Below, in pieces: positions 13,301-58,748 of a DNA stretch of 64,000 bases. A program made the translations under genes and the position numbers. This DNA comes from Tubiluchus corallicola (lineage: Eukaryota; Animalia; Priapulida). Below the pieces are notes generated by a model that saw only the letters and a program-made list of their open reading frames with translations, did no database searches and was not told the DNA's origin. Location of the stretch: NCBI GenBank assembly GCA_030141605.1, contig JAQGDQ010000405.1, positions 124,001 through 188,000 of the forward strand, written 5' to 3'. The stretch's first letter is position 1. Each line of letters begins with the position of its first letter.

Positions 13301-16300
13301 GCAGAGTGATCTTATAGAGAGACACTCTGGCTGGTATAGGCAGATGGCTGGCGGAAATTATTTTATATCTGTTCGGCAGCTTTTGCAGTCTGAAAAGAGC
13401 ATTAGGACATCTTCGCTTGTCAAATTTAATGATTTAAAAATACCTGAGATATCAAAACGATTCAGTGCTTGTAACACAAGTATCAATGATAACTGTGGAG
13501 ATCTCATACTTTCAAATATCATATTGATATTGACTTCAAGAAGATTTTTGTGGAGTAACATATTTTGTTAGTGGTTATGCTGCTAAAGTTGCAGCAAGTG
13601 GCTTGAAATGTAATGACTGCATTAGTTTTATTAAGTCTCAACAACCTCTACATGATGAGGACCTTTTTGACTTAACTACAGTTCCTGTTATAGATGCCCT
13701 TTTTTCCTCAGTAGATAAGAGGTGGTTTGTGCCGCCTAACAGAATTTCCATTTGTTGACTGTTATTATGTATGGTGCTATATACAATTTCTTCTAAAGCA
13801 GGAAAGTTTTAAAACATTTTTGTCAGCTGACTATTCCCATCTGAAGGTGTTGTCTACTGTCATTCTTGAAAAGCTGGAGTCGGAACATATGGACATTAGT
13901 AGTAGTGCCTGCAAAAGTACACATATATGCAGTAGCCTTTTGCGTAGACTAATTCTCATTTTGTCAAAACAATTTTTAAAAATATAACAAATGTTCATGC
14001 TAACGACAATATACGTCCCGCCGGAAGTTAATGCTGGTTCCGCCATCGAATTATCACAGGTGATTTTTATCACGCAAATTTAAAAACGAGACTCCCGAAT
14101 TATTGTCAACACATTAAATGTCATACAAGGAAGCACAAAATTTTAGATCGCTGTTATACAGTAAAGGATGTTTATAAAGCCTTGCAACATGCACCCCTGG
14201 GCGATGCAGACCACAACATGACCACGTGGTTCCAAAATATAAACAGCAGTTGAAGATATATAGACTGGAACATCTTCATAAATTTCTCAGAGTCAATCGA
14301 CGAATGTACTGATGTTGTTGTTGAGTATATGAAATTTTGTGAAGAGATCTGCATTCCAGCTAGGACTGTGGTACTTAAAAAGTTGTGGTTCAACGGCTCT
14401 ATTTCGTCTAAAATCCGGGTGAGACAAATAGCCCATAAATCTGGTGACCAGGAATAATACAAAATCGCGAAGTATGATCTCCGGAAATCAATCGTCTGTC
14501 AAACGGGATCTTAAAAATAAATTGGAGAGAGACTTTGTCTAATAACACTCAAGAACTTGTCAAGGACTAAATAAAATTACGAATTACAAACCCAAATCAA
14601 AAAATATTAGACGACCCAACTTTACCGGATAAGCTGAATAATTTTTATAGTTGTTTTCGTAAAGAAACGGGACCATTGGATTATTTGAACAGGTCAACTT
14701 ACAATAACACTCGGTCCCTTGTTATACAAGATGTGCAGTGAGAGTTGGCAAACTGAAAGTTAAAAAATCTGCAGGACCAGATTGTGTAACACCGCGGCAT
14801 GTGCGATACTGCTCATATCAACTTGCCTATATTTTAGTCACTTTTATAATTAGTAACTATAGACCTGTGGCTGTAACATCAATGTTAAGCAAAACACTAG
14901 AACGTTTGATCTTGCATTTCCTGAAATCTGTGTTGTTTCACCATTTTTGGACCTATTTCAATTTGCATATCGTGCTAATCGTTCAACAGATGATGCTGTA
15001 GTTCTTGTTGTCCATGATGTACTAACACACCTTGATAAATGCAATTGTTATGCCAGAATCCTTTTCGTTGATTTCAGTTCAGCTTTCAATACGATTCTGC
15101 CACTAAAATTGTATTATAAAATCACGGCACTCAACATGCCTGACTGGCTGTGTAATTTCGTACCTGAGTTCTTGACAGGGCGATCACAGATCGTCAATTA
15201 ATGGAAGCACTACCCTTTTTTCAACTTCAAAGTTGTTAATACACGAGCTCCTCAAGGGTGCGTCCTGTCTCCAATTCTATACACATTGTTTACATATGAC
15301 TGTGAAGTATCTTCCCCAAATACTATGATGGTAAAATTTGTTGATGATACAACACTGGCTGGCCTTATTTACAGTAACAACGAGACTAATTATTTTTAGG
15401 AAGTTCAAAATTTAACGTGATGGTGCTAACAGCATAATTTAGAACAGAATGTTTTAAAAACAAAAGAAATTATCGTAGATTACAGAAAAGATACTGATGG
15501 AAAAGCACCTTTGCTTATAAATAATACAGCTGTAGAAATTGTTAAAAATTTCAAATTTCTGGGAATAAAAATTTCAGATGATCTTAAATGGGAAGCTAAT
15601 GTGCTCTGTTGTAATGGCCCGCCAGCGTATGTACTTTTAAAGACAACTCAAATCATTTAACATTGTCCCTGTTGTGATGGAGAGTTTTTATCGTGCAGTA
15701 ATTCTAAGCATCTTAACAATATCTCTCACTGTTTGGTATGACGCTAACACGCAGGGAGATCACAATGCTCTTTATCAAGTTAAATCCGCCTCAAAAATTA
15801 TAGGAGTTGAACACCTGCTTATGGCATATTTGTATGAAACTATGGTTGCAAAGAGGGCGCAAATTATCATGAAAGATGAATTCCATCCAGGTAATAAATA
15901 ATTTGAAATGCTCCCCTCTGGTCGTAGATTCTGCTTAATTAGCACTAAAATCACAAGAACTTTAAATTCTTTCTGTCCCGGTGCAATTCACACCATCAAC
16001 AGTAAATTTCAGTAAATCTCCAATATTAATTCTTTATGTCACTGTACAACTGATTGAATTATTTGTGTTAATCTCCTTGTTGTTTCTATAAGTTATTGCA
16101 GTACGTAAAACCACATCAATTTCATTTTATGTATTATGCTATAATGACAATAAATTGCTTACTTACTTATGCATATGTGTGCTATAGTCATATAGTATTA
16201 TAAAGTGTTGAATGGTTTTATAAACCTAATATCCGCCATTATGCAAAGTAACATGAAACAAGGAGCCAGTAAGCGACTTTGTAACTAATGTAATTCATTC

Positions 16301-19300
16301 ACCTGGAAACGATTGCATCAGGCCTTTCTCGCAACATTCACAAACAAGCCTTGCGTTAATTTTATAGCTTATTGCATGTTGTATTTACTCAGCCAACTTT
16401 TTCATTTCAGGTTATTGATGAGTTAGCTGAGTATAGAAAGGCTTTTGACTTTAAAGGTGATGTAGACTCTGCTGGTGATGTAATTCAAGTGAGTAGAGTA
16501 AATTCGTATTTTACAACAACATACAAGACTTGTTGAATGGTTCTTTATTAAGTATAGTATATAGTAATTTATTTCAGTATGTAAAATAATTTCTTTTAAC
16601 TTTAGTCAGTTTAACTACACTACAAATTTGAAATGTTTTGTTTCCAATTTTGTTGCAGAAATTTTAAAAATTTTTTTACCTTTCCTCTCTTTTAATATGT
16701 GAGAAGAGATGTATAGTTGCCAATCTTTTCTTTACGCAGGCCACAAGATGTGTGTTTAAAATAAAGAACACCAAAAACACTTTCGTATTGAAACTAATAA
16801 TAAGCAGAAAATCAAGAAAACCAGTGTAAATAGCAAATATACATTTTGCGTGATACATACTTCATGTGACGATGAATTACAGTTTTTTGCCGTTTAAACA
16901 GTGAAATTGGATACCTTTTGCAGTTTGTAAATAAACAGCCCAAGATCGATTTTCTGTTAAGTGGGTATGAGATATCATTACTGAAAAGACTCTTATTAGG
17001 TCTAAAGCAAAGTCTAACAAGAAATAAAAACACCAATGAAGTAAACATGGCCATAAAATTCATTCTAGACGTTTTGGCTGTTCTAGCAGCCATCCTAATT
17101 CTATTTATCAAGGAAACTATTATTGCTACTGATAAGCCTGATCTTAGTACACATGGTAGTTCTATCCTGCTGTTTGTATTCTAATGTTGTTGTGTATGAC
17201 CACAGTGGACTGGCATAATTAATTAATTATTACTTAATTAACTTGTTGTTTTGCTGTTGTTGTAATAACAGTTATTATTAGCATCTGGATTATTGTGGTC
17301 TGCAGGTGTTTCTTTCATAATATTATTTTTTAAATTTTTTTTTCGAGACTTGCCTTTATTACATCTATGTCAAACTTATGGTTTCTTCAACATTCCCTGT
17401 AGGCACAGGCAACATTCATTTTTTGTGATCTCTTACTGTACAAGTGTATGGCTTCTGTAGAACTTTATTTGTTTTGTGTGTAGTTTTTATTAGTTTGATC
17501 TTGTTTGTACCATGTGATTTGTTGCTGCTTTATCTCTCATGGTGGGTTTTCATTCTGTTATTGTTTATTATTAGTATCCCAACTATGACAGCCAAAACAT
17601 GTAGAACAAATTTTATAGCTATGTTTGCTGTTTCATTGTTTTTATGATTTCTTATAATATTACTGAATATAATGTCCATTGTTAATTAGTGACAAAGCAC
17701 TTTGATATTATAAGCATAAGTTATGATACTGTATGACAGCCATAAGCAAAAACTGATGAGTGCCGACTTTTTAACTGCCTTTTTCCGATGCACCATTCCA
17801 TGCGAATTGTGCGTGCAAGCAGTGGTCTAGCATGGGCAGGGCTATTGGAGCGGCTGCCTTGGATGCAAAATTTCAATGACAATCCACACTGTACCACATG
17901 ACCAGCATCACATCACATCACATCACCCCACCCATACCATACCATTAATACCATGCCACACCACACCACCTATATTATACCACATCCACCAAACCATAAA
18001 TCATATCACCCATACCATTCCACCCCACCACACTACACCACAACACCCACACAATGCAACGCCATGTCCACCTCGCTATGCCATCTACAGCACTCTACAA
18101 CAAACCACACACTACAACATTAACCCACACTTCAGTCACCACATACACTACACCATCTAACACCATACGGTGATGATGACCCTGATCATGACGACGATGA
18201 TGACAATGAAAATTACACCACCAACAAAGACATCACAACAGCATAGGAAAACTACTCAAAACATTTTGTATTTGAGAGACTACTACTGCGAAAAGTAAAA
18301 GAAAATCATTTTTGAGTAGTTTGTAAGAAAAATATCTGTAAGAAAAATCATAACAAGATAGAGCAAACCAGTTTTGAACTTAAAAAAGAAACAAAGCAAT
18401 TAATGATAAAGCATTCATTAATAAAGACACTGAATAACAAGAAATGAACTTACATCATGGCTGTACTAATCTTGATAAATAAATGGTTTAACTGAGACGA
18501 ACAACAACAACAACAACTTTCTTAGCCAAGAACAGACTGCCAACAGACAAGGTAAATTTGCTGTGTCAGTAAAGCATGACATAAAGAAGCCAAGTCAAGA
18601 CGTACATGAATGCAGTTTAAAAGAGAGAAAGAGCATGGGGGTGCTTAAGGAATAAGTGTACACTAAAGTAAATAAGCTAAAGTCCTTCACATTGTACAAA
18701 GCTGAAATTGTATACTGTGATAAATGCTGTTAGACCCATCCACTAATGATCAATAATACATAGACATTCTATATAGTTTTTGTTTAGTGTATATCAAATG
18801 ATAATGGACTGATTGATACAACCCACATGTACAATCTGCAACACAGTAGAGTGACAGGTGATGACAATACTAACAGCCACATATTTTCAGAAAGAGAGAG
18901 ACAATAGCCATTTCAAAACTGTGCAGCACTAGGGGGGGGCAGTAAAAAAAACTTTAAAATGTGCTCTTTCCATTTCGTTTAGTGGACATCTCTCCTAACA
19001 AAGTCTTCACACCTTTATACAGCTTCTTCCTCTTTCCGAGAGTGTGTTTATTTTTTCCCAAAGTACCCAAACAGTCACACAGATCGATTTTTCTGGAGGC
19101 TGTTTCTGCAAAATTTGGGCGGATTAATCCAGGAAAACTCCCACTGCAGGCAACAGTAGGCTTGGCACGAATTCTAAATTGCCCAACTATACCCAGCATT
19201 GAACAGACTCTCCAGCCATTATCAGTACTATTTCCCGCACGTTCCTGTTATCTAGAAGTAAGATGTATAGGTTTTGCGAAAAGGGTGAAAATTGTCATTT

Positions 19301-22300
19301 TTGGAGGTATTTGGTGCCTTGTTCCTTCCGGTGGCCCTGATTGAAAAAATAAGAACTCGTTGGGACCACACTAGATCAAGAACTTTCATCTGAAATATAA
19401 ATCACCGAAAATAGTGTCGTCGTTAGAGCTACAGTCATGGCAGTTATATATATATATATGTTACAGGCAAAGTGTGAAATCGGGTAGCCTATAGAATGCC
19501 CAGGCATTTTATACAATGCCAAAACAAATCAGGTAATGTGACTAAAACAGGTCATTTTACACTTTTCCTAGGCATTATATACAATGCAAAAGTTTCTTTA
19601 GGCAAAGTATGTGTTTCTTAGATTTTAAGTATATGTTTCTTAGGCATTTTACAGAATGTTGAACAAATTTCAGTTAATATAAAATAAAACAAATGTTCAG
19701 TTGTTCTAATGCAATTTTCCTAGGCATTTACGTAATGCCAGTTTTATTTTAGGGAATATGTCAAGTTGAACCAGGCGATGCTTCAACGTACCTGCAAATT
19801 TGTTTGATTCGTTGGTTGGCTTTTTCTCCTGTCTGAGAATTCTGTTGTTCCTCTTCTATGGTGGACAGAGAGTGAAAATGAGAAAGAGATGCAAGCCTTA
19901 TAGTCTGATGTGCAGGCTACATTTCATAAAACACTGTCAAGCATGTGGTTTAATTTGTTGCACATCAAATTTCTATTAATAACCGCTTCTTTTTCCATGA
20001 CAATACCAGTCATAGCCATTTAAACTATGCACAACATGCAAAATTGTATTTATGCAAGCTCTAAGGCTTGCATCTAAGAAGACTTAAAAAAATTGACTTA
20101 ATGAATATGTGCATAGTGCTAAGCCTGTTCCTAAGCACAAACAAATTTACGAAAAAAATCGTAGGAAGTTGACTGCATTTGGCCGAGGTCTTAATTGCTA
20201 GCTATATAAAGTGATCCACCTGATTGAGCAGCATTTATGCATGCCATACAATGCCTAGGTAATGTAAAAAATATCTAGTAATGGGTGGATTGAACACAAA
20301 TTCTGTTAATTTTTTGCCAATGTCACTTCACACATTTTATGTAAATCCTAGTTATTATAAGAAACAACTAGGTACAGAGAGTGAGTAAGTCGCAGGAAAA
20401 AGATTTATTTCACACTTTTTCCAAAATGCATGTATAGGTATTATATTCTAAATTTTACACATTGCCTGTAACATATACACAAACATATACAGATAACACA
20501 ACTATGTAATAAGTAATACTTGAGCTTATAATATAATATAATGATATAATATATATTACTATATGTTGTGATACGTAGCGAGCTGCACTGTGGCACCTCT
20601 GCAGCACTTCAGTAAGTGCAACAGTTAACACACCTTCAGAGTTTCAGCATCTTAAGCATGAAAGTTACAGAAAACTGAAAGTAGTGGGTAGGATCAAAGC
20701 ATGTCGGTAAAATACGTGTGTGCTCTTGTGTGTACGCAAACTTCGACAGGCTTGAAAAGTAGCGAATGTTAAGTTTAAAAGATTCCACTCAACACCAAAT
20801 ATTAATGAATCTCGTGCACATTCATGTTGACGCGTGTTGATTTTAAACTAGTTTTTACATGGGTAGCTAAATACCTGTTACTTTATATTCAGATACATGA
20901 TTCAGATTGTGATAAGTTTTAGCAATATTCAAGAAATTTGAATCCTTTGTACTTGCAAAGAAAAGCATCCACCCAGCCAGGATGTTATTTGCAGTGTTAG
21001 CTTAGCAATAGACATCCAGTATCGTATGCGATAAAGTTTCAGAAATCATGAGAGTTGTTTCTGCCCTTATGTGGCCAGATTTCCTAATTACTAGCATTCT
21101 CAATGAGTCAGTTATGCGTGCTAGTTATTATGCATTGAATGAATTTTCACCAGTTTGCTATAGCTGTACAACTGAAACATGTTGATTTACATACATTATA
21201 GGATTCGTGGAATGGTAGCTGGCACAACAGCTGTACAAGAAGGTTCTTTAAATTTAAATTAATTAAAAGATATCGTAGAAATACAATAAGTCAAAGAACA
21301 TTGAATAGTCTAACACTATTGGCTATTGAAAGAGATTTTGACATAAACTTCAAACTGTGATGGAAAAATTTGCTTTCATTAAAAGATTTTAAATGAATTT
21401 GTGTATAATGCATTTTACTTTAATTACATTAGTATTTTTCTTAAAATACAATATATGTACTTAGGTTGAGGAAGGGGTGCCAAAGTTAAACTTACCTGGG
21501 GCGCTTGCTACCCACTCTCTACCACTTTTTACCCAAGTGAAAATTTGATATAAGTTTATGGCTTCATTTCGTGATCATTGGTATGAGTCGCTGTTTAGTG
21601 GTGCTCCAAAATAGCAAGACACATTGCCAAGTAATGTGCCATTCTTTTGTATTTAGCAGTGCATAAAAGAACCTACACTTACCATGGCCTTTTTACTACT
21701 GTAAATTATATGCACCTTGAAATTTGTGCATAAGCGTGTCCTTGCAAAATTCGCATACATTTCCAGCATGCAGTAATTTTACGTCTTACGGTATGTTGGA
21801 CATTTTATCTGTTGTTTTTATTCAAGCAAGCTGTTACCTCACAATATGTTTAATTAAATTAGTAAATATTAACATACGGTTAATTTTCAAGGACGCAGGC
21901 ATGGTTGTCATGTCAGATGCATTTGTTTATGGGTTAGACTCTGAGGAATTGATGATAACAGGGCTTGGGTCGCGAATTGGTCCAGGTAAAATGCCTCCGA
22001 TCTCATTGAGGCAAATGAAGGGAAAAAAGACAACGGCAGAAGAAAAAAGAGTAAGACATATTTTTCCGGAAACCTGGATGTGGATAAATGCTACAACAAA
22101 AGCGTAAGTGGAGGGTGTACAATATAAAGATATAAGGTTTGATTACAGCGTTATTAACTAGGCAAAAGTATTCGACTAAAAGTAAAAGCCCAGCCTCATC
22201 AACAGTTTTCCATCAAAATTTAAAGAACATATTCTGAAATATTTTGGCCTATTTTGTAAAATAATCAATGTATTTGTAATACCGTATTTTCCCGTGTATA

Positions 22301-25300
22301 AGAGACCCTTTTTTGCTCAGAATTTTCACTTTAAAAATAGGGGGTCTCTTATACATGGGAGTAAGTCTTTTCAATAAGATGCATAAATTGTGACACTAAT
22401 GATTTTAAAGAAATAAGTGCTCTACAACTGTTTTGCGTGTCGCGTTCGACTATGAAGCGGTTGTAAGCAATACAAGCATCGTGACACAGGCATTATCTCC
22501 TCGTTTTCTCTTTTCCTGTTACAGGTTTGCAGGTACGCACTTTAATATATACCAGTACTCTTTTTCTACAACACATTAACTGGTTTTATTTTGTTTTCAG
22601 TACCGCACTGAGTTGAAAAAAGTTGTACTTTACCCTCTAAAAATGTCCGTCTGAAAAAACTTTTTTCCAGAATTTTTGCCTAAAAATTGAAGGGGTCTCT
22701 TATACACAAGGGTCTCTTATACACGGGAAAATACGGTAATTAGACTAATTTACATGCAATACTTGCTTTCTCTGTCTGCAGTCAACAGTTTTCGGATCAC
22801 ACGACCGTCGGCTTGTGATATTATCGCAGGAACACTGATTGTGAGAGACTACTACTTCATGATGCCCAAAGTCAAAAAAATTCATGTTTGAGTAGCTTTA
22901 TTACGTTTTATCTGTAAAACAAATCATAACAAAATATGACTAACTAATTTGAGCAAAAAAGGAAACAAAGAAATTAATAATAAAGTGAGACTGAATAATC
23001 AAAATAAACTTACATCATGGCTCTACTACTCTTGACAAATAAATGGTTTAACTGAGACAAAACAACAACAACAACTCTCTTAGCCTAGAACAGACTGCCA
23101 ACTAGCCAGGTAAACTAGCTCTGTCAGGAGAGCATGACAGAAAGAAGCTAAGTCAGGACATACGTACATGAATGCAGTTAAAAAGGACAGTATAAGGGGG
23201 TTTACAGAATGAAAGAACACTGAAGTACAACCTAAAATCCTTCACACCGCCCCCTTAAATGCGACTTTAATTACAAGAGCATTTACCAAATTGAGTTTAC
23301 AACAGAAATTACATGTGTCCTTCAATTAAACATAATTGATTAACATGTCGTCTTAGAATGCCAGAAGCTGTCTTCAATGTTGCAAACCGCACCAAACCAT
23401 CTTCATCAGGACTGGCTACTACTACTCTGCCTAGAGCCCAGCTGCTTCGTGGAGTCTGGATGTCTTTAATTAGGACGATGTCACCTTCTTGGATGTTTTT
23501 CTTGGCTCTGTTCCATTTAGACCTTTGCTGGAGCATAACTATATATTCCTTCTTCCACCTTTGCCAAAATATGTTGGCCATATGTTGAATGTGGCGCCAT
23601 CTTCTTGAGTACACATCACAGTCGGTGAATTTTCCAGGTGGTAGAGTAGGACCATTGCGCAGTAACAGCAAGTGATTAGGAGTCAGAGGTTCGCGTCATC
23701 TGAAACTACAGAAATCGGACGACTATTAGGATATTCTCAACCTGACAAAAATATGTGTGTAATGCTTCATCATCTATGGTGTGCTTGTCCATGATAAAGG
23801 TAAGTGTTCGTTTTACACTCTTTATCAGCCGCTCCCAAACTCCTCCAGTGTGTGGAGACTGAGGAGCATTAAATCGCCATTCGATTACCTTTTTTGTAAT
23901 GCCTTGGAAATGTCCTCATTGTTCCACTGCTCGATCGATCTCTTCAGTTCACGATCTGCTCCAGTTAAATTAGTGCCACAATCAGATCGCAGCATCTTGG
24001 GTTCGCCTCTTCGACAAACAAATCTTTGGATAGCATTAATTAAGGAGTCAGTTTCCATTGTATATAGCCAACACTGCCATCTTTCTTGGATACAACTGTC
24101 CAATTCATCATCCCAAGACTTCCTGTGAAGTACAGTGGCTTCCTGAAAGAGAAGTTTTCCTCGAACAACATAGGGAGATAAGAAGCCCAGGGGATCATAC
24201 ACCGAGCATAAAATGCTCAACATTCCTCTTCTAGTGTAGGGTTTCTGCTTGAGCTTGATTTTGACATAAAAAACGTCTCTGTGCATGTCCCACTCGACTC
24301 CTAAGACTCTCTCTCTAGGTAAATTGTCGTAATGCAAATCCAAGGTTTTGACCGATTTTCCACGTTTCTCTGCTGGTATGCTTTCCAAGACTTCTTTCTT
24401 GTTGCTCAGCCATTTGGTAAGGTTGAAACCACCTTCAGCTAATAGTGAAGTCATTTGATGAACTAAGTTACAAGCAGCTTCCACAGTATCAAGTATCAAC
24501 CGACTTTAAAAAATCATCGATGTAAAAGTTCTGTTCAACAGCCTGGGTTATTTCCTTGTCGTACTTGTCTTCATTGTCAGTGACTGTGCGTCCAAGGGCA
24601 AAAGAAGAGATACTGGGAGACCATACGCCTCCAAAGAGATGAACTGTCATCCGATAAACTTTTACAGTGTCTTCCAGATTTCCGTCTCTCCAATATAAGA
24701 ATCTCAGTGGCCTGACACGGACCTGGTAAAACATGGCTTTAATATCTGCCATGACAGCGACGCCCTCCAGACGAAAGCGTATAACAACTCCTATGAGCTT
24801 GCTAGTCAAGTCAGGACCTTGCAAGACAACGTCGTTAAGTGAGACTCCATTAAACTTGGCCCTGCAGTCGAAACCAATGCGAGTTTTATCAGGCTTGTTG
24901 ACATTAAAAACTGGGAAATGAGGGATATACCATATCTTCCCCATGACGCCTGAATCTTCATCAACTTCTTCAGCATATCCACAAGTTAACAGATTGTAGT
25001 TTCTGCTGAATACTTTTTGTGCAGTTCTGGATGTTTAGAAAGTCTGATCTTCAAACTTGATAGTCTGGATTCAGCCATTGGTCGATTATCCTCCAAATTT
25101 GGATCGTGCTCCTTAAAGGGAATGGCTAATTGATAATGGTTATCAGCAGTTTTTACTATACTATTTTCCCAGATTTTTAGTGCACGCTTGTCTTGTTTTG
25201 AATGAGTTACAGTTTCATCATCGTCATTGATGCATCTCTCCAATCTCCAAAATTTTTCAACCTGTGTTGACAGTATGTGATCATTGTCTATGTCAACGTG

Positions 25301-28300
25301 AGCGTAATTGGCTATGTAACATAATGATTGGCGGCCGCCCCCTATGGGCCCATTTAAAGTCCATCCGAGTGCAGTTCTGATGGCATAAGGATCCATTGGC
25401 GAAGAACCAAGTCTCACCTCAAGAGGTGCCAAGGCAACCGGTACATCCTGTCCAATGAGAAGCATGACACAGTTAAAGTCTACATCAGGAAATGAGAGGT
25501 CACTGAGATGATCTAAAGTGGACAAATCAGTCTTTTTAACAATACTCTCTGTGAGGCTTGGAAAGGCATCTATTGCATAAACTGTATTCAGTTTAATAGC
25601 TTCTTTGGCCTCTCCACAGTTGTTGCCTCTTACTGTAAGAGAAATTTTCTCAACTGATGTAGTCTGCTTCCGACCTAATGTGGAAAGCGTCAACGATGTT
25701 TTATGTCCTTTTAGACCTAGTAGCTTCAAAAGTCTTTTACAGCAAAATGAACGATTGCTTCCCCCATCCAGAAAAGCATAAGTAGATATGGACTTTGTGC
25801 TGCCTTCAGACGTAACAGTTACGGCGACAACTGGCAAAACAATTTTTTCCTTTATAGAAAGTGCAGATGATGCACATACTGTGGCATCAGCTTCCATTGC
25901 CTCACTGGTTTGTGTGCCCTTTTGCTTGTTTGCATCTGATGGCGTCCAACTTTCCAACGCTGCATGGAGTAAGTCAGAATGCCTTCTTTTGCAATTGGCT
26001 TGATTGCATCCTTGTCTTCGACACTGCACTGCTCTATGTCTGCCTGGATTTAGACAATTGAAACAAAGATGTTTTTCCTTGACGTATTTGAGACGAGCAT
26101 CATCTGTCATTTTCTTGAATTTTCCACATGCTCTAAGATGGTGATTTTCCTTACACATCAGACATGTCTTTGAAGCTGGCTGGTCAGGTCTCTTCTCTTT
26201 ACTTGGAGTTACAACTGAAGAACTCGAATAGCTGACAAAACTGTTTACGGGATCCTTCCTGTTTTTGTAATGTTTGGCATTATCGCTGCCTCGCTTACTG
26301 ACCTTTCGAGTGTCAGACAAGCAGCCATACACAGGATGAGACATCTCTTCAGAAACTTCTTGAACAAAGTTCTTTACATCAAACATGTCAGGGTTCCTAT
26401 GTTCTAATCTTGCAGTTTGAGTAACCTTAGTCTGCCATCTGCTTTGATATTTGTATGGTAGCTTTTTGATCGCGTGCAAGATGTTTGCTTGAGTGTTAAG
26501 CTCCCCGAGACTATTCATTGACCATAGTGTCTCTATACAACTATTTAGCAGATCAGAAAAGTCACGTAATTTCTCTGGTTCACTTGGCATAATGCTTCCA
26601 AACTCTTTTAGTTTGTTTACCCAGGCTTGTGTTATGATGTAGGGCTGGCCAAAGCGTTCTGCCAACAATCGCTTAGCATGGGCATATGCAGTGTGTGGTT
26701 CCATATAGTTGCACCTTTCAATGACTTGCTTAGCCCTGCCTGTGCACAATTGTAGTAGACGACTAAACCTTGCAGACTCATCTGTAGTATAACACTCTAT
26801 GCTAGCTTCTAGTCTTCTCATAAAACGCCAGTAATGTAATGGATTGCCATCAAAAACTTCAACTTCTACTTTAGGCAAATGTAGTGTCTGGTAGATACTA
26901 TTCTGCTGTCTTTGACCTTCCATCATAAAGTTGATCATAGCATTGAGGTCAGGATTGTGTGATGTGGACGGCTCATCCATAATATTAGCTGCAAATCTGG
27001 GAGTAGAACCCTCCATATGAATATTGTTGCCGTTCGTTGGAGATGCACGATGTGGAATAAAATGTGGAGCCATTGCACTCAAGTTTCTCATCTGTCTACT
27101 GGGAGGCATATTTTCAGAGCGATTTTCATGTTTGAATTTTCGAAAATCATGCATGAGTGGTTGTACACGTGTCTGATATATATGTCTCCAAACATCTACA
27201 TAACGAGAAAAATGAGATGCTTCATGGCGACGCAGCACGTCCATATTCATCCAAGGCTTCTGCTGACCAATAAAGTGTACTACCTTGACATCTCTTTCAA
27301 ACTGGCGCATTGCAGGAATGTAACCATATCTTGCATCATCATCAACATTGACCATATTGTAAGTATATGGAAGATGTTTGTCGAAATCGCCTGCCCATTT
27401 ACGGAAAAACATATTCAGCAGTCCCTGATCACCTCCATCAAAGCTACCATTTTGACAAGCAAATGCTACTAACTGTTCATATGTTGTCACATCCGGCTTA
27501 AACACAAAAACACCAGAATTGAATAAGTCCGGCCAGCCAACATCAGGAGCTGCGGATAATTCCTGCCTCTGAAATAAATCATCTATGTTTGCCATAACCA
27601 AAGTGTCAGCATCAAGGAAAACACATTTACTAAACTGTGTAAGTTTCCAGCAATGCAGTTTCGTGAAACTCACACCCAGCTCAGGTCGTCCCAATGCACT
27701 TAGATTTCCATGATCCAAACTGTCAATGATGTCAAAGGTCTCCACCTGATCAAAAGTCTTTTGAAGAAGAGCCTTCATCTGGACAGTCACATCAGCAGAT
27801 ATCATGATTACCAACTGTCGTTGTGTGCCAGTCTGCTTCAATGAATTGGCAAGTACCAAAGCAGCTGTTGCATACTGATCGTTGGTTGCTAGCGTAACAT
27901 AAGCCTCGTCTACTGATATTCTATCACACAATGAAGACTTCTTAAACCATTCTGTCACTTTAGTTTACTTGCAACTTCGTCAACCTTAACTTTAAAACTT
28001 TTCTGGCTTGCAGTCAGTTTATGAATATCACTTCCCAAATTACTCTCATTTTCAAGCCGCTTTTGCTTCACTTTTAGTGCTTGCAGTTTTAATTCACATT
28101 CCTGAATCTTTAATTCATTGTCCTTGAGCTTGCGAGAATTCTCAGAAAGCTTCCCACCAGTTTTAAAACTCGAGCAACCACTTTTGGAAATTCTTGACCG
28201 AGTGCTTGTGGTGTGTTGCTCCCCCATGTTACCTGTAGCATGTAGCTGCTGCATGTGGCTGACTGTAGCTTCGGCCTTGAAACTACCTGTGGGGGGTGGG

Positions 28301-31300
28301 CTGTCTACTGCTGGCACATGATGAGCAATAATTCTCTCCACTAGTTCAGCTTCAATTCCACCAACTGCTAAGCCTTTCTGACGAAGTATTTCTTTTAATT
28401 GTTCTCTGGTTTTTGTTTTCAGTTCTTCTTCTGTGTATTGCTTTTCAGCCAGTTCATAAAATTTAGGCTCTGCCATTATAAACAAGCTGTGAAAAAATTT
28501 ATACTAGTCAAATAAACCAGTTACTGCTGAATCTAGGTCACGGAACTCAAACCAGGTATTGCAAATTTTCAATGTCACTGTCTGATCAACACCAGGCTTG
28601 TAGGCTGTACAGCTTGTCCTGTATAACAAATGCAGTCATCATTGCTGTCCATGTCTGACTTTGTACTCAGCTAACCTCCTCCTGTCCTGTAGTTTTCCCA
28701 ACAAGAATGGTAGAAGGATATAAAACTGTGAGAGACTATTACTTCATGATGCCCAAAGTCAAAAAAATTCATGTTTGAGTAGCTTTATTACGTTTTATCT
28801 GTAAAACAAATCATAACAAAATATGACTAACTAATTTGAGCAAAAAAGGAAACAAAGAAATTAATAATAAAGTGAGACTGAATAATCAAAATAAACTTAC
28901 ATCATGGCTCTACTACTCTTGACAAATAAATGGTTTAACTGAGACAAAACAACAACAACAACTCTCTTAGCCTAGAACAGACTGCCAACTAGCCAGGTAA
29001 ACTAGCTCTGTCAGTAGAGCATGACAGAAAGAAGCCAAGTCAAGACACATCTGAATGCAGTTAAAAGGACAGTATATGGGGGGGGTTACAGAATGAGAAC
29101 ACTTTAGTAATAAAATAACCTAAAATCCTTCACACTGATGAATTATTAGAGTAAATTTGAATGGATTATGTCATGAAGTCTTCCAAAATATTGAAAGTTG
29201 CCATTTTACTGTGATAATTGGAGCACAAGTTGGAAACAGTAGAATAAAATGTTACAGTTTGTGTTTGCCCATGAAACAATTCTGGAGAACTTAGAATTAC
29301 TGCAGTTGATTTAACAAAGTATTGTTATCAACAACATCAAAGCATTTGTGGCATTCAGTTGTCTGTGAAAGAGTAAGAGATCAAATCTCTTTTATTGTTC
29401 TATTTTGTAGTGAAAGTGGAGAAATAGTTGCTGAAATTTCAGTACCTGATACAATTACAACTTGGCTGGCTACAGCCTTTTCTATGAATGCTAACCTTGG
29501 AATTGGAATTACTGATGAAGCAGCCGCGGTAAGGGTCTGTTGAAAAATGAAACTTTTCTGTTAAATGAGATTTGCCAAATAACTTGTTTATGACTATATT
29601 AGCTGTAATTTAATTGAATTGAATTGAGTTAGGATTGCTGTTTGCTTACTTTGTGTCACTGGTTTATTGCTCATATTAATTTTACTTTTTATTTACAATA
29701 TGTGTAATAATTTTGGCAGCTGACTGTCTTCCGTCCATTCTTTATTGTACTGAACTTGCCATACTGCGTCTTCAAAGGAGACACTTTGAATATGCAAGCT
29801 GTCATCTTCAACTATATGGATGCTGACGTTGAGGTTGTTGTGACTTTAAAATTGAAAGCACCTGATGAAAATCCTGGCAAGGGTAATGGTGCTAACGGTG
29901 GCACTGACGCTAAAGGTGGCAAGGGCCAAGAAGTTGATGGCAAAGGTCAGCAGGAAATTGGCAAAGGTCAGCAGGAAGTTGGCAAAGGTCAGCAGGAAGT
30001 TGGCGAAGGTCAGCAGGAAGCTGGCAAAGGTCAGCAGGAAGTTGGCAAAGGTCAGCAGGAAGCTGGCACTGGTCAGCAGGAAGTTGGCAAAGGTGATGGT
30101 GGCACAGTTGACGGTGACCAGAAAGGTGGTGGCACAGGTGACACTGTTAAGGGGGGCAGTGGCACTCAGTTCTATGAAACTAAACAAACTGGCATTGTAA
30201 GTTCAATTTGATCATTATTATTGCCCTAAGTTTCGTGATATTTTATATTTTTTTTATGTTTGTTTTGCACTATATTGACTTCTTTTGACAGCATGTAACT
30301 TTTATAAGTGGAATTTTAATAGTATTTGCATAATTTTTATATTTTTTCATAAATTATGTATATCTAGAGCTACATTTTTAGAAGTTCATATATTTCTTAA
30401 TATAACTGTTGCTTCCACTTGGTTAAGCATGTTATAAAATAAAAATAGTATAAAACGAGTAGCCAACAAGCAAGCCGTGCTAATTGCTCCCTTTTTTTGG
30501 CGGAGCCATATTTTACATAGGAATTTCACATAGGAAGTCTGTATGATTACTGCTCTGTGAATGGCAAAGATGGAGAATTTCTTTTATCGAATGGCCTTGA
30601 CATCTGTGAATTTATTTAAGTTTTTCACATTGGAATGAAAGTCTTTGGAATATTTTCTATTTTTGGTTAGGATAGTTCGGAAACTTCCTAGAATTTTTTG
30701 AAATGCTGTTAACTAGAATTAATTATACGAATTGTGTAAGAGTGGTTGAATAAAATACAAAAATAAACTAACATACAAATCTAGATAAAAAGTGGTGAAG
30801 GAAAGACGTTTATCTTCCCGATCGGTACTGTTGAAGTTGGTTACTTGCCAATACAAGTACATGCTAGAGCGACTCCAATTGAGGATGGAGGCAAAGGCAA
30901 AGGTGATGGTGGTAAAGGCCAGGTTGACGGCAGCAAAGGCAAAGGTGATGGTGGTAAAGGCCAGGTTGACGGCAGCAAAGGCCAGTTTGATGGAGGCAAA
31001 GGCCAGTTTGAGGGTGGCGAAAACCAGTTTGAAGGAGGCAAAGGCCAGAATGAAGGAGGCAAAGGAGGCTCAATAAAAGAGAAAAAATGTGTAGATCCAC
31101 AAGTACAGGACACCGAGCCTACTATAGACCTAGCACCTGCTAGACCTGCAGAAGACGAAGTACTAAGACATCTTTTAGTCAAGGTATGATTAAAAATTAA
31201 AGTTTTTGTTAGCAATTCAGTGCGTTTTTTATTTTCTGAAACATTTAAAAATTCCATTTGTCGTGCTTTATGCTATAAAATACATAATTTTCCATTACTT

Positions 31301-34300
31301 TAAGTTAAATGTTTCTAAATTAGTTTGGAAGCACTAATGTACTTTTATCTCAGCATGCCCTACTTTTTCATTTCTTGTTAAGTCAGCTATTTCCAGAAAG
31401 TTATTTCTTTAAGAAAATTAAAGAAATATTTACTGTTGTCATGAATCTGTTTCTTCATAGAAATTTAGAATACTCAGTGATAGGCAGATTTATTTATGCA
31501 TTAGAAACTGAAAAAACCACAACACTAAAACAATGTATAGGGCCGACCCATTTAATTAATAGGCATGATTCATTTAACTGGCATGTTTGAGAGCCGTATT
31601 GCGAAAGTGAAAAATCGGGCTCCTGTACGGGGTTTGTGTGATAATCCGTAGTATCTTCATTCAAAATGCCAGTCTTCTGCAATGAAAAATAAATGTGACA
31701 ACAGCAACACCAACAACATTTCAAGCTTTGGGAATCCCACTCTTGCCGAATCCAAAGTAATAATGCAAAGTCATGGAAAGTATTTCAAAATCTGTGCAGT
31801 TAATTCTAAAAATCACGTAAATTATAGTTAATTGTGACAAATGGAGGTTTACATGGTTTAACAAGATGGTGAGAAAAACTGCACGGCTAAAACAACCGAC
31901 AAAAATTTGATAAAGCCATCAAAAAAGGCACATCACAACTCTGCCACTGGTTGTCTCTAATTTATGCATGTTGTAGATAAAACTTCGGAATTTTCAAAAT
32001 AGTTAACTTTAAACTTTATAATTTATTAATTACGTATGTAGCATTCAAAAAGTTATTTGAATAAAACAGATTTTTACTGCAGTTTCAGCTTGGGAGCTTT
32101 TAGCTAGACCACTCCATCACATTTATACATTGAATTTATGCTTCACAAGTTGCTAAGTTGGACGTTTAATGAAACAGTCTCACAAAAACACTTAACTTTG
32201 CTGAATCATACAAATCAAGAATAGATTTTTCTGTTTAAAACTAAAGACGGTTTTAATATTTAGCTGATCCTTGTTTGTACTTTTTTGCTAGGCTTAGATT
32301 TACACTTTGTTGTTTAGAATATCGGTGTCATACGAGTTGTGCCAGAGACATCTGTGCTTGTTAACCCCACCGATTCGAAAACGGAAGTTACAAAAAAACC
32401 AGGCACCGGACAAGAAATAACCACGACTGTTCCTATTGAATTGCCACCTGACATCGAAAAGTGTTGTCAGCAAATTGAAGTGCAAGTTACAGGTTAGAAA
32501 TCTTTCAACAGAGAATTGTGTGTTCGAGTTCATTTGTGTTGCAGCTTCTGTTATTACAATGTGATCTAGCATGCTCTCTACATTGGCATTATCATCATCA
32601 TAGTGATCGTCATCATTTTGTCATTATTTCTCGCCTAAAGTTTACGGAAAGAATTTCTTGTTCTCTTTTTTCTCATTCTCTCTTTTTCTCTTTCTTTCTC
32701 TCTCTCCCCCTCCCTTTCTCTCAAAAGTCAAACAGTGATGTAGATGGTATTCTCAAGGGGGGAGAATTCATATAATGTGCAGTGTATCAAAGATGACAGT
32801 TATTTAGAAACTAAAAACAATGAATACAGCAATTAAGAGCTTTAATAAAAAACTAAAAAAACTTGAAAACAAACCAATCCACAATCACGCCTTATAGTGA
32901 AGTCATAGATCTCAAGCAAAAATCCAGTGGGTCGTTTCAGTCACAGCTCAATGCACGTACATCGTTGTCATCATACAACCCAAACAAAAGCGTGCTTATT
33001 GAAAACGTCAAAGGTGTTAATATAGTCAATTCCAGCACTTCTATCAAGAAAAATTTACATAAACACTTCTCGAATGCTAAGTTTGTGATATCACACAGCC
33101 ATGAGTAAGATCCAGCTACAGTTAACAGACAGACAATCAGCAGATGATTTCATAAAAAAACTGGGACTGTACTTACTTGGGTGAGGACACCAATGTAAGG
33201 AAGCCAAAGATATGTAATATTGGCCTCGCCAGAGACTGAATCCATGTTTAACAGACAATGAAATGCAACATGATGTCAATAAGATTGAACATTTTAAACG
33301 TGAAAATGGCATGGTTCTTCTGTTAGCAAAAATTAAATTTAAATCTCATGCATGATGACTTGAAGACAGCAATTGATAGTGGCATTCCAGTTTAGTAAAT
33401 TGTATGTTAAGTAGTCAAATTTGTTACCAAGCCTACTCCAACCAGGTGCTTTAAATTGTGAAAAATTTGGGCATGTTGCAAAATGGTGCAAATGCTCTGT
33501 TACATGCACGAAATGTTCAAAGCAGCACAAATCAGAAGACTGTGATGAACTTATTCACAAATGTGTTAACTGCAACGGCGATCACGAGGCGTGGGCTAAA
33601 AAACTGTTACAATTATATTAAAAGGTGTTAACATTCGGTGACGATAGACAATGGACATGGCTAGATATAATGTATATTTCATTCAGCTTAATAAATAAAT
33701 AACAATAACATGACATGCTGTACTTACCACCCTACATAAAAGCATTGCCTGATTATTATTTAAGTGAATTGTTAATTTGTACAGTTTGTTATATTGTTTT
33801 TTGCTTTAGTTGTCATTTGGAATTTTTGCCCTGCAAATAGCTGCCTTGTATATACAAAAAAGATCTGGGACATTATGAAAGAAATCATGAATATGGAAAG
33901 AAGTTATTCTCCAATTAAATTAAATATAAGCAATAAACTTGTCTGTAATCCTGATGCAGTTGCTAATAGATAAGTTGATTATTTTACTAAAATAGGTTCT
34001 AATTTGGCTAATAATGTCAATTCTAGTGATGTCGCTAGATTCCGCTAGATGTCGATGTCAAGGATCAGCTAAATATTACATTGCTTGATGTCGATATAAA
34101 TTTGTCAATTCTTGCTTTAGTTTTTTATTTAAAATACTACCTGATATTATTCGCTACATTTAAACCCCTTTGGGTTATCTGATAAATATATACTTGTTAT
34201 TTGTACCTGATAATTTAAAAAAGCTGTAGTAGTGCTTTGTTTAAATCTGGTGATCCGACTTTAATAAATAATTATGGAACCTATTTCACTATTACCAGTC

Positions 34301-37300
34301 TTTTCTAAAATTTATGAACGTTGTGCTTATAAGCAAGTGTACAATTATTTAATTAAACATAGCATATTAAAGAAGAATGAGTTTGGCTTCAGGAAACGTT
34401 GTTCTATCGATCTTCCATTACTGACTGTTAGCGAAACAATCACTAGTGCTGTCAAACATAATTCTTTCATGGCTGCTGTATTTTGTGACTTCTCTTTTGT
34501 GAAGTCTTTGATACAGTTGATCATAAAATTATTCTTTTACGGCTCTAGAGGGGTAGCATATAAATGGCTAAACAGTTATTTACTTTATTGGACTCAGTGT
34601 GTCAGATGCAATAACTGTACATCTAATGAATTACCTGTTAATTGTGGAGCCCTGCAAGGGTCTGTTTTAGAGCCTCTTTTATTTTTAATATATATTAATA
34701 ACACAAAAAACATTTTAGTTGCCTTAGTATAGTTCAGCTTGCAGATGATACCACTCTGTTTTTTGACCTCGTAAATTTCTATTTAATTAGTATAAATAAC
34801 AGTTTCAATGATATCACCAATTGGTTTAAGGTTAATAAACTATCTTTAAATGTGTCCAAAACTAAATATATTTTGTTTTGTTCTAAAAATAAACTCATTC
34901 TTCCCCCCCCCCATATTAACTTGTATTTTCATCGTATATCTATAGAACGGGTTCAGTCTACTAAATTTCTCAGTGTAATTCTTCGCAAACATCTTGATTG
35001 GAATTTTCATATTAAAATGATTAGTTTAAAGATTGCTAAGAATGATTTCTCATATCATCAGTCATTGTTTATCTGCTTGCCATTCACAAACACTTTATTA
35101 GTTTTTAATTTTTCCCTATCTAAATTATATCAGTTGTCTTTGGCGTAGTAGGTATACAACTAATCTAAATTCTTAAGGTCCTGCCAGACAAAATTTTTCC
35201 ATCTACTTTTTAGATTAAATGAATTTGCAAATGTAAATGAATCCCTATTTAGGCAATGCAAAATTCTTTTATTGATAATATAGTGTTTCGCAATATAGCA
35301 GTCTTAGTATATAAAACTTTTATGAAATATTTATAAAAATATAAATATTTTTTTTAAAAATCTTCTAAAATTGAAGGTGAAACATTATATAATACACATT
35401 ATAATCATCATTATCTAGGTTATATTCGTACTAATATTGCCAAGCATTTTGTTAAATTTTATGAACCTCTGATTTGGAATTATCTCCCTGACTACATTAA
35501 AAATCAACATACTGTTTTCAAGAAATGTTAAAAGATTTTGTATTAGAACACGACTTTAATATATTCCACGTGTAATTATTTTTAAACTCATGTTTCAAAG
35601 TAATTAATCTAAGTAAGTGTAGAAGAAGAAGAGGAAAATAAAAAAAGTAGTAAGAAGACTTAATTTGTCACCTGTTAGGTGTGCCAGGTTGCCTCCTGTG
35701 TTGTACATTGCCCTGTTGGTTGCTATGGCTCATGAATGTAAATTCCAATGCTTATTCTATTTTAAACCTAATTCTTACATTCTTTCATTCTCCATTGTTT
35801 CACCATCTTTGTCACCATATCTTCACATTCATAATATATTAATGAATTTTGAGTCTAAATTTTTAGAAGTTTAATGAAATGGCATTGTACTTGCTGTCTA
35901 GAACAGTATCATTTAAAAAGATACACCCCAGCTATGTACATAAAATGCAACGTAAAAAGAAACTGCTGTGGGGAAGACGCCATTCTGTACTGGTAAATTA
36001 GAGTACAACCGTGCAGCCAAGCAGGTTTCGGCAGCTGTTTTTCGTTCGAACTGCGTGAGAGAATACAGAATTTTAAGCTCAAATAACAGTGTTTGTCTTT
36101 TCAAATACATTAATCGTAAGCACAATAATAAATCAGGAGTTGCCCCCTTTAAAATTTGACGGAGATATTGTCGTAGATGATGGAAGAAAGGCTTGTATTC
36201 TGTGCGATGCATTTTCAGAGAATTTTACTCTAGATAATGCGGTAGCATCAAATTTTACTCGCTGGGCGTTAGCAAATGTAGTATAAGCTTTACATCAGGC
36301 GTTGTCTGTAAAGTGCTTAAAAAGATCAATTGTAAAAATAGTCACACACCTGATGGTCTGCCCAACATTCTGTTTTCTAGCTTCGCCGGTCAATTTTACA
36401 TACCACTAGCAAACATTTTTGAATTTTCTTTTCAAACACATGCCCTGCCTAATCTTGGTCGTCTCAATATTTAAAAAAGGTGACCCTGCAGACCCCCTTA
36501 ATTATTGTCCCATTTCACTAACTTGATTAGCTTGCAAGGTGATGGAAATTTGTATTGAAAGTGAACTTTTAGATTATCTGTTATTACATGGTTTAATCTC
36601 TAAATCTCAACACGATTTGACATGAAAAACAGGTCTACATGTACAGAGTTAAATGATTGTGTTAATGATTAGTGCGAAAGTGTTGCCAAAGGTTTGCAAT
36701 TAGATGTGCGGTATAGTGTTGTTCATTCAAAGCTTTTAATCAAATTGCGGTCTTATGCTGTTTCTGGTAATCTTTTAGCATGGATCCGGGCATTTTAAGT
36801 AATCGTACCCAAAGAGTTCTCATTGATCAAGATTTTTCTCCATATATCCTAGTTATTTCTGAAACACCTCAAGGCAGTGTACCCGAACCAATTTTGTTTA
36901 TTTTATTCATTAATGATTTACCACAAGAATTAATTGCTATTAATTGTCGGCAAACCGTGTTGCGTCTGTGCATTGGCAGTGCGCTATGCTCCACTTGGGG
37001 CACGGTAATCCTCAATTACAATATATCTTGAACGGAGTTACATTGTCTGCTAACAATGGTTGTAAAGATTTAGGAATAACTGTCTGTTCAAACTTAAATT
37101 TTTCTAAATATGTTAAAGACCAAGTTGCGAAAGCCTTTCGCGTGGTAAACATGCTGTTTCACTGTTTCTCCATGAAGAACAAAAATGCCCTCAAGGCGCT
37201 TACAAAGCCTATGTTAGGCCACTGCTTAAATATTGTACGCCCGTGTGGTCTCCGCATCACATGCTATAGAGAGAGTTCAGCGATATTTTAGACGCAGGTT

Positions 37301-40300: not shown

Positions 40301-41007
40301 ATTTATTATATTATAGCACATAGTTTCAACTTTGTGAAAAATGTTTGGAATGGTTTTGTTGTAATGCTGTGCTGTTGGTGCTTGTGCTATAGGTGTCGTC
40401 ATCATTGCCACCATCATCATCATCATCATCAACATCGTGATCACCACGTGAGGTGGTGGATTTGATGTGGTGTGGTGGTGGTGTGCTATGGATGGTGTGG
40501 TGGGGTGATAGGGTGTGTGGGGTGTGGTTTGGGTAGTGTGGTATGGAGTGGGTGGCGTGGTGTGTGGGTGGGTGTTGTGGTGCAGTGTGGTGTTATGGTG
40601 TGGTGCAGTGCAGTGTGATGTGGTGGAGTATTATGATGTGGGTGATGTGGTGTGTGGGTGGTGCGGTGTGGTGTGGTGCAGTGGTATGGTGTGGTGCAGT
40701 GTGGTGTGATGTGGTGGAGTCATATGGTGTGGGTGGTGTGGTGTGGTGTGTGGGTGGTGCAGTGGTATGGTGTGGTGTTATGGCGTGGTGCTGTGTGGTG
40801 TGATGTGGTGGAGTGGTATGGTGTGGGTGGTGTGGTGGTATTGTGTGGTGCAGTGTGGTGCGATGAGGTGGAGTGGTATGGTGTGGTGCAGTGTGGTGTG
40901 ATGAGGTGGAGTGGTGTGGTGTGGGTTGTGTGTTGATTTGTGCACAAAATTCTTTTTGTGGGGTTTGGCTAGTCTATTATATTAATATTCTTGGTATGGG
41001 CTTAATA

Positions 41008-41041
<34 letters not shown>

Positions 41042-57988: not shown

Positions 57989-58710
57989 TGTGATAGCGCC
58001 CTATCTTCATGCCCTGTCGGACGTACTAGTGTACAAGCTTGACCTTTTATTTTGAATGCATGTGCAAGCCAAATAAACACTGCTTTACCTAACAATTTGT
58101 ATTCTTAACAATTCGATTAATATCAATACTAGCGAAGGCCCGCAAAAAATTTTGCATATAAATACACTTATAATCATTAATACGTGAACATCCTACACAG
58201 TCCTCATTTATAACACAAAGCCAGCAGCAGCTTTTACTGAATTAAAGTTATAAGGTTATAGACAGAGTATAATGGATGACCTCAGAACAATGGCTTTGCG
58301 TCAGCAGTTTTCTAAGCGAAAATCGTGTGAAATGGAACCTCCAATTAACTCATCACAGCTCCTCAGGAAGGAAGCGTCCTAAAATGTAGCCCACATCATC
58401 GTGTAGCCCTGTTCTTCCTCTTTCTAAAGAGCTTCCCCTTTCGAGAATTCCACCAGGCCCTGCTTTTTTCTCCAGGCTGTTTGGTCAAAATTTCGAAAAA
58501 ATCCGGAGTTGGGTCCGGGAAAACGTTTTTGCAAAACAACGACGGAAAAATGGCCATTTTGGAGGTTTTTCGACCACCCCCCTCCCCCATTCGTCGCGGT
58601 GGACCCGATTAAAAAAATAAACCCCCAATGGCAAGACACTAGATCGAGACCTTGCATTTGATATATAGATTGCCACAAATTGTGCCGCTGTCAAAGCTGT
58701 AGCTTCGAAT

Positions 58711-58748
<38 letters not shown>

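Follow-up and report, generated by a model that had tools for sequence, protein, structure and literature searches.

A BEL/Pao retrotransposon family of Tubiluchus corallicola with a glycogenin catalytic domain inside Gag

Introduction

Can a retrotransposon keep a host sugar transferase as a working part of its own Gag protein? The question is raised by a 64-kb window (the whole stretch of DNA analysed, 64,000 nucleotides of contig JAQGDQ010000405.1) from the priapulid Tubiluchus corallicola, in which the minus strand carries, at 22840-29134, a long terminal repeat (LTR) element of 6295 bp and class BEL/Pao. A first-pass annotation of this DNA had placed an apparently intact glycogenin domain, of glycosyltransferase family 8 (GT8), inside the Gag of this element. 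Here we describe the domain, its copies in public sequencing runs and the selection acting on it, and weigh what it may do for the element.

Results

Gag holds a glycogenin catalytic domain

A single stop-to-stop frame on the minus strand (24989-27964, 992 codons) holds the GT8 domain, DUF1759, the Cys/His knuckles and the protease motif together, as the annotation had claimed for GT8, capsid, three knuckles and protease. Pfam places Glyco_transf_8 at aa 23-240 of this frame (E 2.5e-19), followed by DUF1759 at aa 371-516 (E 4.1e-7), the succession that the annotation had expected a HMMER or BLAST search to return. Residues 18-274 align with glycogenin-1 of rabbit and human, with E values from 5e-87 (rabbit, the best) to 2e-83, and the next GT8 structure after the glycogenins is far weaker (E 4e-28). 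An AlphaFold model of the domain built from an 18-row alignment reached a pLDDT of 75.6 and was matched by Foldseek to glycogenin structures at E 1.9e-30; folded from the single sequence, the domain gave a pLDDT of 33 only. Pfam, alignment and Foldseek thus agree on the identity that had been proposed. The domain lacks introns and is ~257 aa long. In the alignment the captured segment ends with the catalytic domain, and the C-terminal glycogen-synthase-binding tail of host glycogenins is absent; judged by this comparison, the captured piece is the glycogenin catalytic domain and not full glycogenin. Gag and the adjoining protease are laid out as follows:

27958..28476, minus strand: Gag start, with ATG at 28476, SAP domain (E 4.9e-5) and coiled coil, in a frame that differs here from that of GT8
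27143..27913, minus strand: captured intronless glycogenin catalytic domain, GT8 (Pfam, glycogenin-1 alignment, AlphaFold/Foldseek, conserved columns)
26879..27142, minus strand: linker between GT8 and capsid, ~88 aa (translation)
26417..26854, minus strand: BEL Gag capsid-region domain DUF1759, in the GT8 frame (Pfam E 4.1e-7)
25964..26164, minus strand: nucleocapsid with three Cys/His knuckles, in the GT8 frame (motifs in the translation)
25355..25837, minus strand: aspartic protease region, motif FLDGGS with the Asp at 25768, in the GT8 frame, limits approximate (aligns to BEL polyproteins that have weak Asp_protease_2 matches)

The three knuckles follow the nucleocapsid pattern of BEL elements. 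A Pfam scan of the window protein gave no protease family match for the region 25355..25837.

The active site is kept

Every glycogenin motif named by the annotation was located in the 992-codon frame: TLATND at 24, TKL at 101, DAD at 118, GGDQG at 177, YGYIPA at 213, VHF at 229 and KPW at 236. The annotation had also read YGYIPA as the acceptor-tyrosine context of human GYG1, and the alignment agrees, Tyr213 falling opposite residue 215 of the tagged rabbit chain, which is Tyr195 in human numbering. Counted in the same way from the glycogenin-1 alignment, D118/D120, K102, N149 and D176 correspond to human D102/D104, K86, N133 and D160, and D179, Q180, Y213, H230 and K236 correspond to D163, Q164, Y195, H212 and K218. 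Human K86, N133, D160, D163, Q164, H212 and K218 all have roles in glycogenin catalysis. Autoglucosylation needs Asp102 and Tyr195 (PMC13671788; PMC12267440), and W128, D160 and Y197 have been named as inter-subunit contacts (PMC13671788; PMC12267440); the three contacts are retained as W144, D176 and Y215.

A comparison with 278 glycogenin domains places all ten key residues (the D118-K236 set) in columns that are 99-100% conserved. The domain keeps 88 of the 97 columns with at least 90% conservation and 6 of the 63 variable ones.

The domain is shared by diverged copies

Five public sequencing runs, from three studies, contain the stretch or part of it, and four of them (X1, X2, X3 and X5) were compared. 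X1 and X2 are one sample, possibly the source of the window, and X5 belongs to the third study. One X1 contig (27032-28098) covers both GT8 junctions with 6 differences and one gap, at a depth of 69.9 vs 10.3 for a host-flank contig; the corresponding depths in X2 are 1283 for the GT8 contig and 202 for the flank. GT8 contigs thus stand at ~6-7x flank depth, a rough hint only, contig depth not being copy number. Between 7 and 10 contigs run out of the LTR ends into unlike flanks. An X3 contig covers the GT8 5' junction, and its sole indel relative to the window lies at the SAP/GT8 break. A separate X3 contig that matches 27412-27445 only looks like the GT8 of another organism and was set aside.

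Element contigs of X5 are ~88-93% identical to the window across SAP, gag and pol, and one of them has ~1.36 kb extra where the pol of the window copy is deleted. Over GT8, gap-free stretches of 639 and 168 nt differ from the window at 54 and 13 positions, respectively. One contig reaches 42 nt beyond the GT8 start and another passes through GT8 into the linker, which is homologous in X5 and more diverged, reading by eye as one codon longer than in the window. X5 has no coverage over the linker bins, part of the coiled coil, the host flanks and the MITE beside the element; another host species and a faster-changing linker would account for this, but no weight is placed on it. Present in several copies and in a lineage ~9% diverged, GT8 is on the evidence of these contigs a family trait, and that the capture is real and family-wide we regard as almost certain. 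The annotation had named misassembly and a single-copy insertion as outcomes that would undo its reading. Instead, junction-spanning contigs were found not only in X1, which may be the source sample, but also in X3 and X5, and a lone insertion is at odds with the raised depth of the GT8 contigs, the lack of poly(A) or duplication at its borders and the substitution pattern given below.

The window copy itself is in poor condition. Its SAP/coiled-coil frame, opened by the ATG at 28476, ends at 27958 and differs from that of GT8, with the break near 27960; of the claim that GT8 comes directly after the SAP/coiled-coil start, the order therefore stands and the continuity of frame does not. Its pol lies in several frames, with ~395 codons missing between RNase H and integrase (tblastn against a full BEL polyprotein). 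Because of the SAP/GT8 frame break and the broken, deleted pol, the window copy is a dead family member, unable as assembled to make the SAP-GT8-capsid fusion. The X1 and X3 contigs over the SAP/GT8 break have one gap each relative to the window, and family contigs also differ from it by indels at the pol breaks, which suggests that the frame breaks belong to this copy alone. We rejected programmed frameshifting as an explanation of the SAP/GT8 break, since no standard slippery heptamer is seen by eye and sister contigs differ there. At the pol deletion point (~24066) one X3 contig passes by 27 letters, where 31 were needed to count as bridging, a hint of a deleted, non-autonomous subfamily beyond the window copy.

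Substitutions between lineages spare conserved codons

The substitution analysis rests on one lineage pair (window vs X5) and on 40 of its 67 differences, with the intervals for the site counts inferred from the rows shown. Of these 40 differences, 12 are at first, 5 at second and 23 at third codon positions; 24 are silent and 16 are replacements. The resulting dN/dS ranges from 0.16 without transition bias to 0.26 at a kappa of 8, with binomial p 2e-7 to 1e-4. Replacements hit 1 of 59 conserved codons vs 15 of 86 others (Fisher p 0.002). Any decay of the window copy after its insertion would push dN/dS towards 1. It is therefore very probable, from this pattern, that the GT8 domain has been under amino-acid selection.

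A likely origin in a spliced host mRNA

Among the proteins listed, identity reaches at most ~57% across the full domain and 61% where only part of it aligns. A quick tree of 92 rows, from which 8 chosen sequences had been dropped by deduplication or a length filter, gave the domain no settled position among the glycogenins of animals, at the end of a branch of 1.24 changes per site. In X5, contig 13 (at 27603-27661) carries a second glycogenin with canonical residues, in which GRPELSVTFT precedes the Lys and LILQNIDDLF follows the DAD, as read by eye; it shares ~75% DNA identity with the element GT8 over 119 nt, also by eye. This sequence is a candidate for the host gene, or else for an older subfamily, and if it is the host gene then the capture is old.

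The element has no A-run of 7 or more, and the borders of GT8 share no repeat longer than 8 nt. With neither poly(A) nor a duplication of its own at its borders, GT8 is therefore not a separate LINE-made insertion; a host coding piece that is free of introns, lies in an LTR element and has no poly(A) or target duplication of its own is what is found in LTR-mediated retrocopies. The likely source of GT8 is a spliced host mRNA, taken up long ago. We infer that the route was template switching during reverse transcription, which fits because GT8 is intronless, in sense and in frame (PMC5131818). The annotation's proposal of a host glycogenin mRNA taken into gag and kept in frame is thus supported by the junction contigs, the diverged lineage and the dN/dS.

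Architecture of the element and its surroundings

Outside the Gag and protease region, the element and the nearest host exon comprise the following features:

22835..22839, no strand: target-site duplication CTGAT, left (read from the sequence)
22840..23246, minus strand: 3' LTR, TG...CA, 407 bp (sequence and LTR comparison)
23247..23256, minus strand: polypurine-tract-like run, a purine-rich 10-mer abutting the 3' LTR (read from the sequence)
23312..24067, minus strand: integrase remnants, the end of the core plus DUF5641, in several frames and with the N-terminal part deleted (DUF5641 E 5e-33; tblastn map)
24053..24992, minus strand: reverse transcriptase and the start of the RNase H region (Pao Peptidase_A17), frame-broken here (PF05380 E 2.8e-12; weak RVT_1 E 0.03; tblastn map)
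28727..29134, minus strand: 5' LTR, 408 bp (LTR comparison; many differing flanks at LTR ends in read contigs)
29135..29139, no strand: target-site duplication CTGAT, right (read from the sequence)
29711..30208, plus strand: exon of a host alpha-2-macroglobulin/TEP-family gene (Pfam A2M E 5.7e-11)

The matched LTRs and CTGAT duplication of the annotation are both present (22840-23246 and 28727-29134). The LTR pair aligns with 391 matches, 10 mismatches and 15 gap columns over 416, and both members run TG...CA. LTRs of 407/408 bp and an element of 6295 bp fall within the ranges of the Belpaoviridae, 0.2-1.2 kb around a genome of 4.2-10 kb (PMC8742986). As in that family, Gag has a capsid and a nucleocapsid (DUF1759 and three Cys/His knuckles), and it is 26-32% identical to BEL polyproteins. 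The order protease, reverse transcriptase, RNase H, integrase (PR-RT-RH-IN) is also that of the family, being colinear with a full BEL polyprotein in tblastn and marked by PF05380 and DUF5641, although it is broken and partly deleted here. The purine-rich 10-mer at the 3' LTR supplies the polypurine tract. In a check for a primer-binding site (tRNA-Arg/tRNA-Gly), the first bases after the 5' LTR do not begin TGG and the 64-kb window has zero tRNA genes. By layout and Pao-type domains, as read from sequence, the element is of the class BEL/Pao. Exon-like frames at ~21890-22100 and 29410-29530 bracket it in the translations, and by this reading it is inserted antisense within an intron of the alpha-2-macroglobulin/TEP-family gene.

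Differences between the LTRs (23050-23246 vs 28940-29134) are uneven, with 2 in 300 nt at one end and most at the other, which suggests a recombinant of two family members and not simple ageing. An older relative of the LTR lies at 18273-18691 (76% identical over 431 columns) with no matching internal sequence in the window, and is probably a solo LTR. Beside the 3' LTR, at ~22280-22740, is a MITE-like element with long terminal inverted repeats, found at thousands-fold flank depth in X1-X3. Exons of the host alpha-2-macroglobulin/TEP-family gene at 29870-31075 and 44870-45000 carry long 21-nt repeats rich in Gly/Lys/Gln (GKGQQEV-like) after the A2M domain. Copies of another dispersed repeat of ~800-1500 bp occur in both orientations at 3000-4600, 39450-42100 and 58100-58750, some of them beside CACCA-rich simple repeats. 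A frame at 13089-13571 is transposase-like by eye, without a Pfam match, and is a mobile-element remnant; a reverse transcriptase fragment at 34268-34732 (RVT_1 E 7.6e-6) is probably a LINE-type remnant.

Discussion

The reading that we favour, at only slightly better than even confidence, is that GT8 is a working self-glucosylating module N-terminal to the capsid, which would add a short alpha-1,4-glucose tag to Gag. A spliced host glycogenin mRNA would have been captured by a BEL/Pao element through a template switch, between the SAP/coiled-coil part and the capsid, and purifying selection would have retained the domain in a continuous SAP-GT8-capsid Gag, as we infer for sister copies. The GT8 domains would then pair, bind UDP-glucose and Mn2+ like host glycogenin and build a short alpha-1,4-glucose chain on Tyr213. 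Glycogenin alone builds a short chain, and N-terminal Gag domains sit outward on particles. Lying N-terminal to the capsid, the domain may face outward on the particle or be freed by the protease of the element. Without the synthase-binding tail, the product would be a short sugar tag or primer chain, not a glycogen granule, with no direct recruitment of glycogen synthase. The likeliest benefit, and this is a guess, is that in germline cytoplasm rich in glycogen Gag or its particles could dock on glycogen particles of the host or on proteins that bind glycogen. Tentatively, and as a possibility more than an expectation, we extend this to a BEL/Pao lineage with a self-glucosylating capsid precursor, whose link to glycogen metabolism would help it enter or stay in the germline, the trait being kept in diverged lineages and possibly in more than one host species.

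Several points weigh against this proposal. At 9 of the 97 conserved columns the domain departs from the consensus, a count above that of 95% of real glycogenins (median 1), and these departures include G18A and T83S in human numbering; in patients, T83M abolishes autoglucosylation (PMC13671788). Three residues are inserted just before the acceptor tyrosine, and the alignment places no proline at the position of human P238. The dN/dS comes from one pair and 40 sites, and its low value could mean only that a misfolded insert harms Gag. The branch of 1.24 pools change before and after capture. No single contig runs the full length of the element, so that an intact copy is not in evidence; contig depth is a poor guide to copy number, and X1/X2 may be the source sample.

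The changes in the domain bear most directly on the idea that it serves as a scaffold and not as an enzyme: the fold would dimerise Gag, bind sugar or glycogen, or simply have to fold well within the polyprotein, the transferase being weak or lost. We hold this unlikely, though it is the alternative that survives best. The nine altered columns and the insertion beside the acceptor tyrosine speak for it, and four of those columns (77, 90, 147 and 158) are covered by X5 without appearing among its listed replacements and so look fixed in the family. Human GYG2, moreover, barely autoglucosylates despite having the same catalytic residues (PMC12267440). A scaffold does not explain, however, why surface catalytic residues that are dispensable for the fold (K102, D176, D179, Q180, Y213, H230 and K236) were all retained while variable columns turned over.

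A host-directed effector appears less probable still. Here the tail-less domain would pair with host glycogenin or glucosylate some other protein, diverting glycogen synthesis or blunting host defence. The clean absence of the synthase-binding tail would suit such a role, non-productive glycogenin partners suppress glycogen synthesis (PMC12267440), and the changes by the acceptor arm could shift the choice of substrate; baculoviruses have a stand-alone GT8 gene, p13, without a clear function (PMC4133818). Yet the acceptor tyrosine and its neighbour are retained, and partner and substrate are hypothetical.

Could the domain be a neutral passenger, an LTR-mediated retrocopy that landed in frame by chance and whose conserved residues merely reflect the host gene at capture? 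Young LTR retrocopies are often in frame (14 of 17 in Drosophila; PMC5131818), the family is small, and the donor gene stands outside the comparison. Against this, the lineages are ~9% apart with zero gaps in 639 nt, a dN/dS of 0.16-0.26 and conserved columns spared, whereas 14 of 21 older retrocopies lost function (PMC5131818); and if the second glycogenin of X5, at only ~75% DNA identity over 119 nt, is the host gene, the capture would be old. We regard a passenger as improbable. An assembly chimera, or a one-off retrocopy in the window copy alone, is very improbable, for although the window copy has several frame breaks and the whole element stands in no listed contig, three samples, drawn from three studies, have junction contigs whose depth is that of a family, and the GT8 borders lack poly(A) or a duplication.

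Host pieces in LTR elements are mostly fragments, decaying or replacing pol. This family is distinctive in having a complete enzyme domain inside Gag, with active-site residues intact, measurable selection and pol regions still present. If active, the domain would give a retroviral-type structural protein that glycosylates itself with no need of the secretory pathway, and would link transposon biology directly to glycogen metabolism. As a natural tail-less variant of glycogenin, it could serve to ask how the catalytic domain behaves when glycogen synthase is absent. Standard glycogenin methods suit the 257-aa domain on its own, which makes the self-glucosylation proposal cheap to test.

Relation to known systems

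The annotation knew of no LTR element with glycogenin in Gag, and no GT8-Gag fusion appeared in the protein matches listed or in open literature titles and abstract openings (subscription journals and Repbase lie outside this coverage). Among proteins of 202-1736 aa, a gag Pfam family was found in none of the best 120 of 987 and the best 120 of 2640 matches, and PF01501 in 0 of 6 Gag matches, a longer Gag-Pol with GT8 falling outside that range. In a length-free HMMER search with GT8 plus capsid, the best 150 of 9088 matches, where a fusion should rank first, hold no fusion. Of 250 proteins compared, none matches both GT8 and capsid, and 12 multi-stretch or long glycogenins have no gag Pfam match. 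The Atlas gave no match or plain glycogenin clusters, and viral contigs, metagenome contigs and phages gave none. A survey of host fragments in transposable elements has no entry for PF01501 in its supplement file 3 (PMC3597677).

The domain resembles glycogenin-1 (PDB 1LL2, 3T7M; PMC12267440) in fold, DAD motif, catalytic and acceptor residues, with ~52-55% identity over the catalytic domain; unlike glycogenin-1, it is tail-less, fused on both sides, altered at 9 conserved columns and extended by a 3-residue insert at the acceptor arm. Among viral genes, baculovirus p13 is likewise predicted to be a family-8 glycosyltransferase, but it is a stand-alone gene of a large DNA virus with no fusion to a structural polyprotein (PMC4133818). 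The element shares LTR size, gag-pol layout, PR-RT-RH-IN order and Pao-specific Pfam families with the Belpaoviridae, and differs in the extra enzyme domain of ~257 aa in Gag, only env being listed there as an extra gene (PMC8742986); env capture is treated in PMC3118150. BEL elements are among the Repbase transposable elements with matches to host fragments (PMC3597677). Bdelloid LTR elements have acquired and kept a GDSL esterase, a DEDDy nuclease and a dUTPase, comparable accessory enzymes, but the esterase and nuclease are separate ORF3 genes, unlike a GT8 within Gag (PMC5408684). The closest parallel in mode of capture is with LTR-mediated retrocopies, in which a spliced host mRNA lies in an LTR element in sense and in frame, a few having KA/KS 0.15-0.26 (PMC5131818). 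Those are young chimeras with discontinuous flanking LTR elements (PMC5131818); in the family described here, a whole catalytic domain lies in gag, capsid, protease and (in X5 contigs) pol are kept, the domain is common to diverged lineages, and there is no close donor in the databases. Capture of host mRNA by LTR elements is thus known, and what is rare is an enzyme cargo long kept, under selection, inside Gag.

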